From Eledone cirrhosa (lineage: Eukaryota), in NCBI GenBank assembly GCA_964016885.1, contig OZ024740.1, forward strand, positions 343,790,001-343,854,000: DNA of 64,000 nucleotides. The letters are read 5' to 3'. The position numbers were made by a program, and so were the translations under genes. This document shows positions 18,473-43,085 of the stretch, piece by piece. The notes beneath the pieces are model-generated. The model was not told where the DNA came from and made no database searches. It saw nothing but the letters and a program-made list of their open reading frames with translations. Position 1 is the stretch's first letter. Every line of letters starts with the position of its first letter.

Positions 18473-18651
18473 TAATTGTTTCTACTTTAGGCACAAGGCC
18501 AGCAATTATCCAGTACATTACTGGTACTTTATTTTATCGACCCCGTAAGGATGAAAGGCAAAGTTAACCTCGACGGGATTTGAACTCAAACCGTAAAGGG
18601 ACGTAACTATGCTAGAAAGCATGGCGCCCAATCCTCTACTGATACTGCCAA
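18473..18651 (-). mobile_element. SINE, short form
   Basis: Head TGGCAGTATCAG...GAGTTCAAATCC, core and tail present. Confidence 0.9.
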
Positions 18652-18954
18652 ATAACGTCTGTAATAATAACAACCAAAGCCAGATCAACAATATTACAAA
18701 AAGAACACCAGTAGCATGAATATTAAGGATGCTGATGGTGACGAAGATGATAATATTTTATTAAAATACAAATTATAATTAAGCCATTACTATAACCTCA
18801 TCTTGTAAAGCCTTCATATTTTACGAAAGAGAGAAAAAGAAAATTTCAAAACGAAAAAAAAAAAAAAAAGCGAAGCAAACAGGAAAAGCTAGAGAAAGCA
18901 ACAGTAAAAACAAAAATGGTAAAAAGACAGAGCAAAAAGTAGCAGGAGCAAATG

Positions 18955-19030
<76 letters not shown>

Positions 19031-19044
19031 CAACAACAACAACA

Positions 19045-19081
<37 letters not shown>
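18955..19081. repeat. (AAT)n/(AAC)n microsatellite, 3' flank of the Tx1 element
   Basis: Direct reading. Confidence 0.95.
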
Positions 19082-19083
<2 letters not shown>

Positions 19084-19340
19084 TTTCATTTATTGGCCAC
19101 AAGGGCCGACATATAGGGGACAACACAATAGACAGGGACAGTGGGGGTTTACATAGAGATCGAGTAAGTATAAATAACAAAAAAACAAAAACAAAATAAC
19201 AATAAAAATACAACAATGAAAGTTCCCCAATAAGAGGTATCACCACCCAGGGTTGACTCAAGCACCCCACCAGTCCTGAGCCACCCGACGCTCCTAGGGC
19301 ACCCGGGAAGGGCACCCCTCTCCTTCTCGAATTCACCAGC

Positions 19341-22300
19341 CTACAGGCGCATGATCAGAGTAGGCCCACTCACGCGGGCCATTCTCGCCACATTCACCCA
19401 CCTTTCAGTAAATGTACTGGGGGGCAGCACTTCTCTCTCCACCCTCACCTTCCTTTCCAAGTGAAACTTGAAGAAGTTGATGAGGGATTGGCCGAAGAGA
19501 AAAGTGTCTGTCTTCAGTCCTTTCAACCTGGTCCACCATGCAACCTCTTTCGCTACTGCCACCAGGCAGAGGAAAATTGCCTGCCCTTCCTGACCAAAAG
19601 AAGGCGGCGGGTCAATCTTCACTATGGACTCGGACGATAGCCGGATCCGTTCTACACGCGACAATAGCTGTTCGACATAACCCCACAAGTCAGCAATGCA
19701 CGGACACTGGACGAGTGCGTGCAGAACGGTTTCGTCGCTCTGCGCGCATCTCGGGCAGGTTCGTCTGACAGCACTTCCGTGCCTGTAGAGTTTATCCCGA
19801 ACCGGCAGCGCCCCCCGGTAGCACTGCCAAGCGAGGGATTTCTGGAAGTTATCCATCGTCCCCGGCTCGAAAGTCCTCCGGAACATACTGGTCAGTTCTA
19901 CTTCGTTGACGCCCAGAGCCTCTCCTAGTACGTCATCGCACTTGCCCTCCACTAATCCTCTATAGAAATCTTGAGTGGAAGTTCCACTGACCGCATTGCC
20001 CACCTTGCAGAGTGCAGTGAGCGCCTGGCAACATTCCAGATGCCAGTCGCCCAGTCTCGGTCTCTTCTTGACCCAGGACTGCAGCTCAGTCAAAGAGATG
20101 AGCTGCGGAAAGGCCCGTCTAACAAACGGCGACCACACCTGTTCACCGTTTAGGCAAAATATCTGGAGATGTCGCAGCCTCAGCGCATGTCTGCGCATCA
20201 TTAGCCACGGCATGCCCAGCCCTCCACGAAGAGGGTGCTGGCAGCAGATGGACCGCCTCACCAACGGGACCCGTCCCCTCCACAAAAATTTGAAAAGGAG
20301 CCGTTCCAAATTGGCGAGGCGTGGACGGGGGCAAGGCACGACGGTCAGGCGGTAGTAGATGACGGACGCGATGTACGCGTTCGCCACCTCCGCCCGCCCT
20401 TTCAGTGATAGCTTTCTCTCAGCCCATTTCTGGGTGAGGTTGGCTATCCTGCTCGTCACCTCGTCCCAATTCTTATCCACCTGGAGGTCTGGTCCGAACC
20501 AAACCCCGAGCAACTTTACCGGTCCGTCTGTCCAGCGCCCAACGACGCTGTTGGACGGCATGGACTTGCCTCTCCAGGTGCCGAGCTGCAAGCCCACCGA
20601 CTTTTCCGGGTTAAGTTTTGCTCCCGTCAACTTTTCATATTCCTCCAAATGGGTGCGGATCACCTCGATTTCCGAGGTGTCCGACACCATCACGGTGATG
20701 TCGTCCGCATAAGCGGACGCAGCCTTTCTACGTCCCGGTTCGAGCGGGATGCCCTGCAACAACTCCAGCTTCCGCAGTAGAGGCTCAAGAGTCAATACGT
20801 ACAGAAGTGAGGAGAGAGGGCACCCTTGACGGACCGATCGAGAGATCTGAAACGGTTCCGAGAGGTGGCCATTAACTTTGACCACCGAGCGGATGCCGCT
20901 GTACATTGCAGCGATCCAGCTTCTGAAGACGGGGCCGAAGCCAGCCGCCTCGAGGACAGCCTCCAAGTACCGATGGTCGACCCTATCGAATGCTTTCGAT
21001 TGATCTAAATTGATCAGAGCCCCACCGAAGCCAGGTTTGCACCCAACCCTCTCTATGATGTATCGCATGAGGTGGAGGTTGTCGTGTATGGACCTGGTCG
21101 GGATTGCGCAAGTTTGCGCCTCCCCAACCAAATCTTTGACGACAAGCGCCAACCTTTTCGCTAACACCTTGGCCAAAATCTTAAACTCTGTGTTGAGCAG
21201 GGTTATGGGCCTGAAATTATCTAGTGTGTCCCTCTTGTTCTCGTCTTTCCTTATCAGCGTCACTACGCCACGGCTCACAGAACTGGGAATGCTCCCGTTC
21301 TGCTGCCAGTTGCAGTAGAGCGCTTCGAGGAGATCGGAGAACAAGTCTGGCATATTTACGTAAAGCTCGTAGGGCAGACCATCCAAACCGGGTGACTTGC
21401 GACTCGAGCAGCCGACAAGGGCGTCCTGAATTTCGGCTGATGTTATCGGCTCTTCGCAGCGCTCAGCGTCGGCCGTCGAGAGGCGTGGCAAGCCGTCGAG
21501 GTAGGGACTGAAGTCCGCCGCCATCTCCGACTCACCCATCCTCCCGAACAATCGAGCAAAGTGCTGGCGAAAGGCCTCACACATCCGCTTGGAATCGCTC
21601 AGTTCGTGTCCATCTCGATCCGTCAAAGACCGAATTGTGGTTTTATTTCCACGCTGCGTCTCTGCAAAGCGAGCCCATCGGGCAGCTTTGGTTCCCTCGT
21701 TCCTCAGAGCACGCGCCTTAGCTCTGACAATGCAACCTTCGTGTTTCGCATTGAAGAAATGGTCTAGTGCCATTCTCGCCGCTAGCACGTCTGTTGCAAT
21801 GCCACTACAAATAGCCTCGTCTAACTTAGCTATCAGCCCCTCCTCCTTTCTATTTTTCTCTATTGCTACTTCTTTGCTAAATCCTATCGAGGTTGCTCTA
21901 ATCTCTCTTTTGAGTGCCCCCCACCACCTGTTGTTGACAACCCCCCCTGTCAACTTTTGCTTAACTAAGTTGTTGACCCGGTCCCTGTAAGCTTTACGTG
22001 CCGGAAACGACATGTTTAGCTTCCAGTAGCTAGGTCCTAACCTACGTGTCTTATCTAGGTCGACCATACAGATCACAAGCTTGTGATCTGAATAGGCAAC
22101 CGTTTTAAAATGTGGACATCCTACACTATTTCTATCTCTTTTCCTAATGAAAATCCTATCTATGTACGATCTAGATGACCCTATGCGATTGGTCCAGGTC
22201 CATACTGGCGCATTAGGGAAATCTAGTCGGTACCTGTCAGACAGTTGAAACTGGCTGATCAGGTACTTGAGGCTTTTGCACCCCCCGCTCCTATCAGATA

Positions 22301-22760
22301 CTCCCACACAATCCCAGCGTGCTTCTAAGATGCCATTCCAATCCCCTATTAACAGTAAAGGGCGAGACGTAAGCAGAAAGTTTTCCAGGCGCCTAAAGAA
22401 GTCCGGCCGACCGGCCCCAGTAGGGGCGTAGACGGCCACCAGTCTAAAGGCACCACCTTCGCTATTGCTCACGTCCAGGACCACCAACTTTCCGTCAGGA
22501 TCCCGGAAGATTGACCTTACCTCGAGATCCAGACATTTCCTAAACAGCACAGCCACTCCACCTCCCATTCCCGGCCGACTAACAGATGCAAAGATCTGAT
22601 AATCGTCGAAAATCGGCGCCAGTGCGCGTGTGTCGGAAATTCTGGTCTCGCTGATGGCAATTACATCCATTCCTAGTGACCTGAGGTCGTTGAGCAAGTG
22701 ACCTTGCTTCCAGGGCGACCCCAGGCCACGAACATTTAAACTTCCTACTCTTATGGCCAT
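19341..22760 (-). CDS. ORF2: APE endonuclease, reverse transcriptase and C-terminal CCHC zinc finger (Tx1-like), 1139 aa
   Basis: APE motifs NVRGL, SET, VYAP, GDWN, IDR, SDH. RT motifs KSPGLDG, FRPITLLN, DQSKAFDRV, RQGCPLS, YADD. Zinc finger CPRC-x8-H-x4-C. Confidence 0.96.
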   Translation of the reverse strand: MAIRVGSLNVRGLGSPWKQGHLLNDLRSLGMDVIAISETRISDTRALAPIFDDYQIFASVSRPGMGGGVAVLFRKCLDLEVRSIFRDPDGKLVVLDVSNSEGGAFRLVAVYAPTGAGRPDFFRRLENFLLTSRPLLLIGDWNGILEARWDCVGVSDRSGGCKSLKYLISQFQLSDRYRLDFPNAPVWTWTNRIGSSRSYIDRIFIRKRDRNSVGCPHFKTVAYSDHKLVICMVDLDKTRRLGPSYWKLNMSFPARKAYRDRVNNLVKQKLTGGVVNNRWWGALKREIRATSIGFSKEVAIEKNRKEEGLIAKLDEAICSGIATDVLAARMALDHFFNAKHEGCIVRAKARALRNEGTKAARWARFAETQRGNKTTIRSLTDRDGHELSDSKRMCEAFRQHFARLFGRMGESEMAADFSPYLDGLPRLSTADAERCEEPITSAEIQDALVGCSSRKSPGLDGLPYELYVNMPDLFSDLLEALYCNWQQNGSIPSSVSRGVVTLIRKDENKRDTLDNFRPITLLNTEFKILAKVLAKRLALVVKDLVGEAQTCAIPTRSIHDNLHLMRYIIERVGCKPGFGGALINLDQSKAFDRVDHRYLEAVLEAAGFGPVFRSWIAAMYSGIRSVVKVNGHLSEPFQISRSVRQGCPLSSLLYVLTLEPLLRKLELLQGIPLEPGRRKAASAYADDITVMVSDTSEIEVIRTHLEEYEKLTGAKLNPEKSVGLQLGTWRGKSMPSNSVVGRWTDGPVKLLGVWFGPDLQVDKNWDEVTSRIANLTQKWAERKLSLKGRAEVANAYIASVIYYRLTVVPCPRPRLANLERLLFKFLWRGRVPLVRRSICCQHPLRGGLGMPWLMMRRHALRLRHLQIFCLNGEQVWSPFVRRAFPQLISLTELQSWVKKRPRLGDWHLECCQALTALCKVGNAVSGTSTQDFYRGLVEGKCDDVLGEALGVNEVELTSMFRRTFEPGTMDNFQKSLAWQCYRGALPVRDKLYRHGSAVRRTCPRCAQSDETVLHALVQCPCIADLWGYVEQLLSRVERIRLSSESIVKIDPPPSFGQEGQAIFLCLVAVAKEVAWWTRLKGLKTDTFLFGQSLINFFKFHLERKVRVEREVLPPSTFTERWVNVARMARVSGPTLIMRL

Positions 22761-22789
22761 GCTGGCAGGATGAATGGGAGAGGAAAGGT

Positions 22790-24700
22790 TTACTTACCTT
22801 CCGGGGTCTTGTGAAGGTCGGGTGGTTCGACCTCCATGGTTTGTGGGGTTTCTTTTGGGAACCCCTTTAATAGTCTTGACGTGGGTTTTACGTTCGGGGT
22901 TCCCACATCCCGAGGAAAGCTCTTTCGAATTTCTTTGTATGAAGCGAGCGACATTCGCATCAGAAGCAAATTATCTGGTACGCGAAATGTGCTCGCTTCA
23001 AATGTTTCCCCGTCTTTTTCGATGTTTGTGCTTCGTGCTACATGGGCCATCAATTCCTTGTTGGCCCTTCTGGCAAGCACGAAGTTTTTAATGTTTTGTT
23101 GCTCGGGTTTTATTTGTTCGTGTGATTGTGGTGGTGATAGCTTTGTTAGTGTTGTTTCTATTGTGTCTGCGTTTGTTGTGGGTGGGGTGTCTGTAGTTTC
23201 TGATGTTTGTGTGTCTATTTGTTCTTGTGTCTGTTTAGCTTGTTTGCGTTTGGGGGATTTTGGTGGTTGTGTTGGTGATGCTGTGGGGAAAATGTTTGTG
23301 TGGGTGGTGTGTGTATTTTTTTTTGTGGGGGTGTTTGTGCTTTGTGGATTTCTTTTTTTTTTGTGTTTTGTTTTTTGTATTTTGGGGGACTTTGGTTTTC
23401 CCTCATCTTCACTGCTGGAGGATGAGGGGTCTGTGGCTGTGAGCGTGTTTGTGTCTGAGTGAGTGTTTATGTTCTTGTTCGTGTGTGTATTTTGGGGGGG
23501 AGGGGGAATGGGAGAGCTTTCCTCGTTTCCCCCCTGGGTGTGCAATTTTGGTGGTTCCATTGTTGACGGTGTTGCTGGTGGTCCTTGTCCCGGCGTCGCC
23601 AGCAGTGGAATCTTTCGACCCCTTGCGCTTTTCGGCAGTTGAGGGCAGAAGGCTCGCAAGTGTGTCGTTTCCCCACAAAGGAAACAATGCGGCCTTTTGC
23701 CCTCAGTCATTATATGCAACACCCTCCCGTTTTGGAGGCGGATGTGGTCCGGGATTGTTTTTACGTTTTCGGGTCTGATTTGGAGCAGTATCTCCAGATC
23801 AACCCCGGACCAGTCGTCCCTGGCAGTTCTCGTTGCCTCTACCGGGACTGTATCCGTTCCTTCCACGATTACGCAACCCAGGAGCCACCACATATCAAGT
23901 CCTGGTGGAATCCTGGGAATGCGCACACGTGCTATTCGTTTTCCCATGTGGGAGGGGTACATTATGACCTTGCTGGTTTTGCAAGGGGTCATTGAATGCT
24001 TCACAGCGAGGGCTTCAGACTTGAACAGCACCGAAACGGTGCCGTATTGCCTGCCCCTCTCTATGAAGTCTGTGTCCTCTCTGATGTATTTCAGTGCGGC
24101 TTCTATGTCAGCTTGGGCGATTATCGCTGCCCTCTTTGTCTCTACTGAGATGCATCTGAAATGCACCGTTCTTTTTTCCACTGCCTCAATGGCTTCTGCC
24201 GGGACAGTTAAGTTTGCCCAGGTCTGCTCTTGATTTATGATTTTCCAGGCCTGGGCCAACTTTTCCTCTCTGTTGGTTAAGTCGATGCTGTAGCATGGTC
24301 TCCTTTTAGCCGCTGCCACAGCAGCGAAAGTGTTCTTGTTGGTGTTGTCACTGTTGTTGTTCTTGTTGGTGTTGCTGCTGCTATTGCTGTTGTTGTTCTC
24401 CCCTGTGTCGTGGTTACCCTCTGTGCTGTTGGCCTTGTTGGTGCTGCTGCTGTCGCTACTATTACTCTCTGTGCTGTTCGTTTTGTTGGTGCTCTCGCTA
24501 TTACCACCTTCTGCGCTGTTCGGCTTGTTGGTGTTGGTGTTGTCGCTGTTACCACCTTCCGCGCCGCTCGGCCCGTTGGTGCTGGCACTGTCGCTGCTCA
24601 CATTCGTGCTGGTGGCGCTCCTCGCCTCACCTCTCCTCTCAACGCTCAAGTCGCCGTTGCACGACAGCAGACCCGCCTCTAGGGGGCGTGGCTCCGCCAT
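22790..24700 (-). CDS. ORF1: gag-like nucleic-acid-binding protein with a CCHC zinc knuckle, 636 aa
   Basis: CFLCGETTHLRAFC (CX2CX4HX4C). S/N/T-rich N-terminus, P/T/K-rich linker. Lies just upstream of ORF2 on the same strand. Confidence 0.9.
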   Translation of the reverse strand: MAEPRPLEAGLLSCNGDLSVERRGEARSATSTNVSSDSASTNGPSGAEGGNSDNTNTNKPNSAEGGNSESTNKTNSTESNSSDSSSTNKANSTEGNHDTGENNNSNSSSNTNKNNNSDNTNKNTFAAVAAAKRRPCYSIDLTNREEKLAQAWKIINQEQTWANLTVPAEAIEAVEKRTVHFRCISVETKRAAIIAQADIEAALKYIREDTDFIERGRQYGTVSVLFKSEALAVKHSMTPCKTSKVIMYPSHMGKRIARVRIPRIPPGLDMWWLLGCVIVEGTDTVPVEATRTARDDWSGVDLEILLQIRPENVKTIPDHIRLQNGRVLHIMTEGKRPHCFLCGETTHLRAFCPQLPKSARGRKIPLLATPGQGPPATPSTMEPPKLHTQGGNEESSPIPPPPQNTHTNKNINTHSDTNTLTATDPSSSSSEDEGKPKSPKIQKTKHKKKRNPQSTNTPTKKNTHTTHTNIFPTASPTQPPKSPKRKQAKQTQEQIDTQTSETTDTPPTTNADTIETTLTKLSPPQSHEQIKPEQQNIKNFVLARRANKELMAHVARSTNIEKDGETFEASTFRVPDNLLLMRMSLASYKEIRKSFPRDVGTPNVKPTSRLLKGFPKETPQTMEVEPPDLHKTPEGK

Positions 24701-24910
24701 GTTTTTTTGAGAAAAAAATTATTATTTTTTTTCAAAATAAAGTTCAAATATTTGGGCCAAAAGGCCCAAATATTATGAGTTATTCCTTCACAGGATACAA
24801 ATTAATGTCTTATAATGCTTCAGCGGTACAAAAAATAAACAATTCTCTACAATTAATCCTCAAAAATTGCTTACTCACGGAGCTTCAAAAAACGTACATC
24901 CACTATCGTC

Positions 24911-24941
<31 letters not shown>

Positions 24942-24985
24942 GTAATAATAATAACAACAACAATAACGACGACTACAATAATAAC
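24911..24985. repeat. (AAT)n microsatellite, 5' flank of the Tx1 element
   Basis: (AAT)10 starts at 24911, then decays. Confidence 0.95.
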
Positions 24986-26728: not shown

Positions 26729-26784
<56 letters not shown>

Positions 26785-27789
26785 CCCTCTGGCAGGCGGA
26801 TCCGGTTATCAGTGGAGACTCCACCGCAACATTCTATAGAGGGCTGGTACGCAGCAGGTGCGACGACGCCCTCGGAGAAGCCCTAGACATGGAGGAGGAC
26901 GAACTGGCCGGCCTGTTCGGTAGGACATTCAACCCGGGACCTATGGACAACTTCCAGAAGTCCCTGGCCTGGCAGTGCTACCGAGGAGCTTTACCCGTTC
27001 GAGAAAGGCTCTACAGACACGGGCGCCCGGGTAGGGACCCCGCCAAAAAGATCTGTCCCAGATGCGTGTGCGACAAGGAAACCGTTGCACACGCATTGGT
27101 ACACTGCTCGGGCGTAGCCGATCTGTGGGGCTATGTCGAACAACTGCTGTCAAGGGTGGGACCGATCCGGTTGACCACCGAGTCTATTGTAATGATCAAG
27201 CCGCCTCCTCCCTTCAAAGATGAAGCAGAGGCGGTGTTTTTGTGCGTAATAGCCATGGCGAAAGAGGTTGTATGGTGGACGCGTCTGAAAGGACTGAGGT
27301 CAGGCACCTTTCTCTCTGGCCAACAACTGGTCCGTTTCTTCCGATATCATTTCGGAAGAAGGATCAGGATGGAGAGAGAGGTGCTGCACCCCAGTCGTTT
27401 TTATGAAAGGTGGGTGAAAGTGGCGAGAATGGCCCGTGTGAATGGGCCTTCTCTTTACATGAGCCTGTAGGTGGAAAAGAGGAAGGAACGAGGGAGCACC
27501 CCCTCTCTGTGCTCCTGAGGAAAAGGGTTGCACACTTTTTTCGGGGGTGTGTGCGACCCCCCAAGGCGCCTCCTCCCTATTGAGGATTTTGTTATAAATT
27601 TTATTTTTTGTTATATTTTATAACAAAATCCTCTATTAAGGATTTTGTTATAATTCTATTTTTTGTTATATTTTATTTTATTTTTATATATTGTTATTGC
27701 CTTCTCCCTATTGAGGACGCCTTGTTTTGTAAACTCCCCCCATTGTACTTGTCCCACTTTTGATGCCCTTGTGGCAAATAAAAGAAACA

Positions 27790-27790
<1 letters not shown>
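26785..27790 (+). mobile_element. 5'-truncated Tx1-like LINE, sister family B (ORF2 C-terminus and 3'UTR), bounded by (ATCT)n
   Basis: The peptide FYRGLV..CDDALGEAL...MDNFQKSLAWQCYRGALPVR...CPRC..ETVAHALVHC...VARMARVNGPSL aligns with the end of the 1139-aa ORF2. Stop at 27470. Confidence 0.92.
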
Positions 27791-27856
<66 letters not shown>

Positions 27857-27897
27857 ACATCTATCTATCTATCTATCTATCTATTTATCTATCTATC
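27791..27897. repeat. (ATCT)n between the two family-B copies; a further (ATCT)14 lies at 26729-26784
   Basis: Direct reading. Confidence 0.95.
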
Positions 27898-28447
27898 CTC
27901 CCCTCTTCAAAAACGAAGGAGATGCGGTGTTTCTGTGCGTAATAGCCATGGTGAAAGAGGTTGTATGGTGGACGCGTCTGAAAGAACTGAGGTCAGACAC
28001 CTTTCTCTCTGGCCAACAACTTGTCCATTTCTTCCGATATTATTTCGGAAGAAGGATCAGGATGGAGAGAGAGGTACTGCACCCCAGCCGTTTTTATGAA
28101 AGATGGGAGAAAGTGGCGAGAATGGCCCGTGTGAATGGGCCTTCGCTCTACATCAGACTGTAGGTGAGAAAGATGAAAGATAAAGGGACCACCTTCTCTC
28201 TGTGCTCCTGAGGAGAAGGGTTACACACTTTTTTCGGGGTGTGTGTGCGACCCCCCAAGGCGCCTCTTCCCTATTGAGGATTTTGTTATTCAATTTATTT
28301 TTGTTATATTTTATATTTTTATATTTTTATATTTTGTTATTGCCTCCTCCTTATTGAGGACGCCTTTTTATTTACATAAAAAGGCGTCCTCAATAAGGAG
28401 GAGGCATTGTACTCTTTGATGCCCTGGTGGCAAATAAAAAGAAAGTT
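27898..28447 (+). mobile_element. Second, shorter 5'-truncated family-B Tx1 copy, followed by (ATCT)3
   Basis: AVFLCVIAMVKEVVWWTRLK...VNGPSLYIRL. The 3'UTR is homologous to 27471-27790. Confidence 0.9.
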
Positions 28448-37794: not shown

Positions 37795-39241
<1,447 letters not shown>

Positions 39242-42619: not shown

Positions 42620-43085
42620 ACACTACCTTGTTCGTTACCTTGTCCAAGTTCCTTTTCACCAGATTCCGTTCAACTTAACTGGTCCGTCTGTCCGGCATCC
42701 CTCGACGCTGTTGAACACCATGGATTTGCGATTCTAGGTACTGAGCTGCAACCCATCGACCTGTCGGGATTAAGTTTTACTCCCATCAATACTCATTTAG
42801 GAAGGAATTGGCTACCTCAATTTCCGAGGTGGTCGACACCATCACCGTGATATCGTCTGCATATGCCGACGCAGCCCTTCCACGTCCCGGTTCGGGCGGT
42901 ATGCACTTCAACAGCTCCAGCTTCAAAAGTAGTAAATAAAGTGTCAACATATACAGAATGGTGGAGAGACACTTCCCACGGGTGGCTATTTATTATGACA
43001 ACCGAGCAGATACCGCTGTGTATTGCAAAGATCCAACCTCTGAGGACGGGATCAAAGCCGGCTGCTCTAAGGACAACCTTCAATT
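42620..43085 (-). mobile_element. Decayed Tx1 RT fragment related to the intact element
   Basis: Homologous to ~20460-20960 (GGTCCGTCTGTCC, GAGCTGCAA, TTCCGAGGTG, VLRAAGFDPVLRGWI). Confidence 0.8.

Follow-up and report, generated by a model that had tools for sequence, protein, structure and literature searches.

A very young family of LINEs, one intact member of which lies in the 64,000-nucleotide stretch of DNA analysed here (the window), inserts specifically in (ATT)n microsatellites, and this specificity is real and well supported by the junctions of copies collected throughout the genome. Judged from its sequence, the element is an APE-type non-LTR retrotransposon of the L1 superfamily. 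It very probably represents a family, likely of the Tx1 clade, that enters a pre-existing (ATT)n repeat, likely by target-primed reverse transcription depending on its own endonuclease. With (ATT)n, a new target is added to those of an already familiar type of element, which does not amount to a new kind of system.

Structural Organization of the Element

As proposed in the initial annotation, the two ORFs, which lie on the minus strand, are open, and the perfect repeats (AAT)11 and (AAT)10 abut the two ends of the element in identical orientation. The proposal of a repeat-embedded element thus stands, but its start at 18955 takes in a compound array, including (AAT)23 at 18957-19025, and the limits of the element proper are 19082-24910. 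The following features were recognized:

24911..24940, minus strand: (ATT)10 at the 5' junction, probably the target array, perhaps together with units of an RNA leader
19082..24910, minus strand: full-length APE-type LINE of subfamily A, 5829 bp, its ends fixed by means of copies elsewhere in the genome
24701..24910, minus strand: 5' UTR, the first ~110 nt of which vary among subfamilies A, B, C, D and E
24747..24774, minus strand: perfect 12-bp hairpin in the 5' UTR, common to subfamilies with other heads
22790..24700, minus strand: ORF1, 636 aa, with an RNA-binding-like region and one CCHC zinc knuckle at 23645-23686
19341..22760, minus strand: ORF2, 1139 aa
22083..22742, minus strand: APE-type endonuclease domain, ORF2 aa 7-226
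22167-22199, minus strand: betaB6-betaB5 loop T188-S198, placed by alignment to the L1-EN chimera LR1 and from the available text of PMC1950540
20502..21236, minus strand: reverse transcriptase (RT) domain, ORF2 aa 509-753, with YADD at 684
19683..19841, minus strand: C-terminal zinc finger zf-RVT, ORF2 aa 974-1026
19095..19107, minus strand: 3'-terminal stem-loop (4-bp stem, CUUGU loop), followed by AATAAA, the predicted recognition signal for the RT
19049..19081, minus strand: (ATT)11 at the 3' junction, duplicated target devoid of a poly(A) tail
18951..19048, no strand assigned: remaining compound (AAT)/(AAC) microsatellite, host flank

Read in the sense of the element, the junctions consist of (ATT)10 followed by GACG at the 5' end and of AATAAATGAAATC followed by (ATT)11 at the 3' end, with no poly(A). 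ORF2 contains the Pfam domains Exo_endo_phos (PF03372), RVT_1 (PF00078) and zf-RVT (PF13966), all above the cut-offs, together with the catalytic motifs E38, GDWN, SDH and YADD, and its best match among PDB entries is human L1 ORF2p (E 2.6e-57, as compared to 5.2e-22 for R2). The zinc knuckle of ORF1 is a single CX2CX4HX4C motif at aa 339; no Pfam domain, including the L1 ORF1 domain, was found in this protein, and its look-alikes in the Atlas bear zf-CCHC (scores 0.91-0.92).

A few additional features of the 5' half were observed. In the Atlas, residues 120-365 of ORF1 (window 22793-24340) lead with a score of 0.89 to the host protein ZCCHC3, more precisely to its RNA-binding domains; this protein is reportedly able to suppress LINE-1. 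The Asn/Ser-rich start of ORF1 contains a 48-bp tandem repeat (24416-24595), the copy number of which varies among copies of the element to give an ORF1 of 620 or 636 aa. The heads of the subfamilies (window 24701-24910; L176, L209, L241, L244, L190) are unrelated over the first ~110 nt, which corresponds to a replacement of the 5' UTR, all of them starting with G and keeping the hairpin located ~45 nt ahead of ORF1.

Distribution of the (ATT)n Junctions

Two samples of copies were used to survey the junctions. In the 5'-anchored sample, the 30 loci fetched from the best 40 5'-end matches all start at the identical base, so that the 5' end is complete, as the initial annotation had assumed, and all 30 heads are preceded by 4-17 ATT units. 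The 3'-anchored sample, which avoids selecting for full length, contains 39 other best matches to the last 317 nt, 60 copies added in chromosome order from the 947 3'-end matches by skipping those already sampled or already seen to be short, and the window copy, giving a total of 100 loci. Full-length copies account for 82 of these loci (59 of subfamily A and 23 of subfamily B, which is ~86% identical), although L173 and L174 may represent one duplicated insertion within this count.

Sense-strand ATT touches the head in all 82 full-length copies, and at least four perfect ATT units occur at the 5' junction in 79 of them (79 of the 100 loci), always in the same orientation. Since (ATT)4 precedes 52 of 127,976 positions in the window, the ATT units found at the 5' junctions cannot be attributed to chance. 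Non-ATT 5' junctions in most other copies had been named beforehand as the outcome speaking against specificity, and the survey gave the opposite picture. Both proportions also exceed the share of flanks of one type (>20%) above which, in the available text of PMC4494074, Kojima considers a family target-specific. Genome-wide, the A head joined to (ATT)3 has 319 exact matches, as compared to 312 for an internal 31-mer from the 5' part of this subfamily. The heads of subfamilies C (5), D (7) and E (1) are similarly preceded by 3-15 ATT units, many of these heads having been found through their position behind an A or B copy. Among 171 distinct 3' ends (114 ATT, 21 ATCT and 36 short or variant runs), a sample biased to two families, no third target repeat was detected. 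The (AT)n arrays of the window, one of which extends over 1.4 kb at 37795-39241, far outnumber its (ATT)n arrays and yet are not a target.

Proposed Mechanism and Choice of the Target

According to the mechanism proposed here, the ORF2 protein would bind the 3' stem-loop of the RNA, and the endonuclease would nick the (AAT)n strand at AAT/AAT, a TpA step as in L1. The junctions show that the copy begins at the last base of the element, without poly(A) and with at most a short tail, and the truncated copies show a second-strand cut ~17 nt away, which duplicates 5-6 units. A few AUU units might lead the full-length RNA, with about even chances, and the end of the cDNA would then anneal to the upstream array to create the uniform 5' junction. 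Finally, ATT units are kept on both sides of each insertion and the site is hit repeatedly, as shown by arrays of up to 10 copies. The stem-loop at the origin of this scheme possesses an invariant CUUGU loop and paired changes across subfamilies, with 7 two-sided cells against 0 of 500 shuffles reaching as high a value in a control that ignores relatedness.

The main alternative, which is rather unlikely but deserves to be weighed, supposes that the target is chosen mainly by pairing of the AUU-rich 3' end of the RNA, combined with a loose nick at TpA by an endonuclease of L1-like preference. A sister family is associated with another repeat, (ATCT)n, and two of its copies occur in tandem in the window:

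26785..27790, plus strand: copy of the sister family truncated at its 5' end, flanked by (ATCT)14 (26729-26784) and (ATCT)n (27791-27897)
27898..28447, plus strand: another truncated copy of the ATCT family, shorter than the preceding one and arranged in tandem with it

The first of these copies shares 63% amino-acid identity with the element over the C-terminal part of the sister. Both families comprise hundreds of near-identical copies, and the same best-match 3' sampling yielded 38 full-length copies out of 39 for family A versus 29 truncated copies out of 30 for the ATCT family. These 29 copies are truncated at scattered points, the remaining one being of unclear length. Full-length ATCT copies nevertheless exist, with 15 of 21 heads preceded by a run of at least three units.

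In a quick version of the RT tree, as distinct from a finished search, the ATCT copies are sister to A plus B (support 97), and the ATT-targeting subfamily C branches outside this group, so that ATT is the ancestral target and ATCT the derived one. The RT is ~80% identical to that of A in both the ATCT family and C, while the endonuclease of the ATCT family, known from L231, a complete natural copy, and from three incomplete ones, is 61% identical to that of A, as compared to 72% for C. Thirty-two endonuclease residues that do not vary among the ATT families are replaced in the ATCT family. One of these changes, I193S, is located in the betaB6-betaB5 hairpin loop, and the available text of PMC1950540 ties this endonuclease loop to target choice. 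The ATCT lineage is nested within the ATT lineages, has switched to (ATCT)n and possesses a faster-diverged endonuclease.

A choice of the target by pairing would agree with the TpA step at which both sister families would cut, with the off-repeat sites occupied by L204 and, in the ATCT family, by L117, and with the nicking by L1-EN, described in the available text of PMC1950540 as looser in vitro than integration in vivo. It is difficult to reconcile, however, with an endonuclease that has diverged more from A in the ATCT family than in the more distant, ATT-keeping C at similar RT identity. It is equally difficult to reconcile with the zero-tail copies L208 and L195, in which the last base of the element is followed by a variant unit recurring on the 5' side, with no RNA-derived ATT at the 3' end. 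Recognition of the repeat by the element's own endonuclease is accordingly the preferred reading.

Evidence for a Pre-Existing Target

The idea that (ATT)n was present before the element, already put forward in the initial annotation, is borne out by empty paralogous sites which carry the repeat and by truncated copies with target-site duplications. At one site of a host repeat, 25 of 30 loci keep a clean flank and no element, with 3-11 ATT units (median 7), whereas the filled sites in that host repeat (L068, L089, L093, L175) exhibit 11-15 units, which corresponds to a gain of ~5-6 units. The truncated copies L215 and L198 are associated with 17-bp duplications extending from ATT into the non-ATT flank, the truncated L203 with a duplication of at least 8 bp, the full-length L221 and L210 with 18-bp duplications, and L236, from the ATCT family, with a 17-bp duplication. 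Together with the zero tails of L208 and L195, the empty sites and the duplications identify ATT as the target and not as the ends of the element. Both marks of target-primed insertion, 5' truncation and duplication, are encountered in L215, L198, L203 and L204, and in L236 and L111 from the ATCT family.

The 20 non-full-length loci comprise 2 with actual or possible other heads, 6 in which the copy is fused with, or inverted relative to, a second one, and 12 ending in host DNA. Five of the latter 12 junctions adjoin ATT or a duplication that begins in ATT. In one further copy (L204), the duplication is located at a site other than ATT, and the remaining six (L182, L183, L184, L211, L217, L219) lack both ATT and a duplication at their 5' side; these six may represent deletions.

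It is very improbable that both repeats are a leader and a tail belonging to the element and carried into arbitrary AT-rich sites devoid of any pre-existing target. Such an origin would account for 5' runs that almost never fall below four units and are longer than the 3' run in 53 of the 82 full-length copies, as well as for the six truncated copies lacking ATT at their 5' side. It is contradicted by the empty paralogous sites already holding the repeat. The duplications of truncated copies which start in ATT, the variable length of the 5' runs (2 to 21 units among the 82 copies) and the ATCT copies, of which 20 out of 30, cut at many internal points, abut at least three repeat units by a strict test, also argue against it.

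Uniformity of the 5' Junctions

A 17-bp duplication should often place non-ATT bases against the head, yet this was seen in none of the 25 full-length copies flanked on either side by a short run, and a leader is therefore proposed here. In addition, L189 and L208 contain a surplus of ATT beyond what the duplicated target held. Unlike those of the uniform ATT family, the last bases before the head vary in the ATCT family. For R2, the available text of PMC3774820 relates uniform 5' junctions to target-derived sequence left on the RNA, the junctions being variable where this sequence is absent. By analogy, an AUU leader on the full-length RNA might explain the uniform 5' junctions of the ATT family, an explanation to which we give about an even chance. 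Instead of a leader, a variable second nick could be at work, as the truncated ATCT copies L104, L123 and L227 also lack the non-repeat part of the duplication, and slippage or a point change could be responsible for the surplus ATT of L208 and L189. A search of the element with Rfam yielded no ribozyme (a single chance-level match) and no hammerhead core was found; the HDV-ribozyme descriptor also matches 24-43 of 60 shuffles.

Family Size, Age and Tandem Arrays

Exact matches to a 34-mer taken from the 3' end occur 947 times in the genome, which contains ~300 full-length heads. The 39 aligned dispersed A copies (5.8 kb) differ by a median of 14 substitutions and 26 of them keep both ORFs open, in agreement with the youth attributed to the family by the first reading; the window copy is 5 substitutions away from its nearest relative. 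Judging from these sequences, the family may still be active at present.

As each insertion leaves ATT on both sides, a site can be reused and head-to-tail arrays arise. The largest one (G000:C1:423361001-423421000, L277-L282) consists of 10 full-length copies arranged head to tail and separated by exact (ATT)5 spacers, with members 0-42 substitutions apart and a divergence rising from 5' to 3'. An inverted 3'-end fragment follows its last copy. Five further arrays of 2-4 copies each were seen. Growth at the 5' side only, to which the gradient of the 10-copy array would correspond, is ruled out as a rule by the reverse gradient of the arrays at C1:181.4 Mb and C2:264.5 Mb. Separate insertions are indicated for array members that differ by 19-52 substitutions, and duplication or conversion for those that differ by 0-3.

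The latter situation, found for copies 2 and 3 of the C1 array and for the members of the C4:276.7 Mb array, is what would be expected if the near-identical copies were due to assembly error or to duplications, whether tandem or segmental, instead of retrotransposition, but this is extremely improbable for the family, given the unrelated flanks of dispersed copies that stop exactly at the ends of the element, the 19-52 substitutions separating members of other arrays, and the presence of the 5' UTR in contigs of the public runs X1 and X4, X1 being possibly the window's own sample. In the public runs X5 and X6, the 5' UTR is hardly covered or not covered at all.

Associated Elements

Another element of the window shares the 3' stem-loop:

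18474..18650, minus strand: SINE with the shared 3' stem-loop, ending in ATT, candidate passenger (limits approximate)

In many loci, the SINE ends with the same CUUGU loop and spacing and with ATT, and its 5' junctions lie near ATT in 12 of 25 cases from a biased sample. Owing to this common loop, spacing and ending, the SINE is likely moved by the LINE group of the window, as a partner or passenger.

A different LINE, in which CCHC, RHD and PD..D-type motifs are recognized, terminates in the microsatellites used by the element, but on the opposite strand (L038, L042 and others; downstream of the element). We take it to be Dong/R4-like from these motifs, and its occurrence in the same arrays would represent a convergent use of one repeat. 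A fragment of an RT, old and broken, occurs at 42659-43083 on the minus strand and belongs to the LINE group of the element.

Significance and Possible Applications

The basis of microsatellite targeting by APE-type elements was qualified as not well understood in the available text of PMC3812793 (2013). Two young families with ~80% identical RTs, different repeats and a polarised change offer a test of how targets change, the 32 endonuclease positions providing a short, testable list for the switch from ATT to ATCT. The occurrence of this switch in a close sister makes the new target variant more useful. Insertion of whole copies (38 of the 39 youngest) into a harmless repeat is of interest for a site-directed insertion tool, and the family helps to account for a microsatellite-rich, LINE-clustered genome structure. 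A broader view remains tentative and somewhat doubtful, namely that of an active, uncatalogued Tx1-like radiation that would regenerate its (ATT)n target, integrate almost exclusively at full length through the annealing of an AUU leader, move an abundant SINE owing to the common 3' stem-loop and include a sister in which ~30 substitutions have adapted the endonuclease from a repeat of 3 bases to one of 4 bases.

Comparison with Known Systems

The ORF1 of Tx1 elements possesses an RNA-binding domain and a CCHC zinc knuckle and not the L1 ORF1 domain. ORF1 of the window element displays the same combination, with its CCHC knuckle, its RNA-binding-like region and no L1 ORF1 domain according to Pfam, and this anatomy points to the Tx1 clade. 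No protein named Tx1 emerged from homologue searches or from a cluster look-up, and in a quick tree the RT branches with unnamed relatives, apart from the clade that comprises the named fish RT proteins. To judge from its repeat features, the host of the window element may be an octopod. In Octopus vulgaris, L1-Tx1 families are present and were recently active according to the available text of PMC13282606, which states no target and the supplement of which is a family count only. The available texts of PMC8967140, PMC9115989, PMC10294476, PMC4758252 and PMC9004415 add nothing about targets. No Tx1 element with an ATT or ATCT target appears in the accessible part of the literature searched; Repbase, Dfam, Kojima and Fujiwara 2004, and the supplement of PMC4494074 may hold such elements.

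With Tx1L of Xenopus and human L1, the element shares an ORF2 of the APE-RT-zinc finger type, and the anchors T188 and S198 of its hairpin loop are spaced like T192 and S202 of L1 in the available text of PMC1950540. It differs from both by the lack of poly(A), the repeat target, and an ORF1 which bears a CCHC knuckle but not the Pfam domain of L1 ORF1. R2 elements with upstream 28S sequence on their RNA similarly show uniform 5' junctions, which become variable where the leader is absent, but they belong to a different clade with a different enzyme, and no ribozyme was detected in the window element. No description of an R2-like 5' joining for an APE element was found in the accessible texts of the literature searched.

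Two known groups resemble the element by their targets. Dong elements, from the R4 clade, consist of a single ORF with a C-terminal restriction-like endonuclease. They use the same microsatellite, given as (TAA)n in the available text of PMC3812793, where Dong is listed among the APE-type elements; the two ORFs and the N-terminal APE of the window element rule out a Dong/R4 identity.

The closest parallel is found in the Tx1 families whose targets, according to the available text of PMC4494074, are (TC)n, (TTC)n, (TTCC)n and (TTTC)n. An identity with Kibi or Koshi is ruled out by the target, since no (TC)n or (TTC)n 5' junction occurs among the 82 full-length copies. Like the teleost elements Kibi ((TC)n) and Koshi ((TTC)n) and the crocodilian Tx1 elements ((TTCC)n or (TTTC)n), the element described here is a two-ORF APE-type LINE devoted to a single microsatellite; it differs from them by targets, (ATT)n and (ATCT)n, which are not polypyrimidine, and by a host that is likely an invertebrate.
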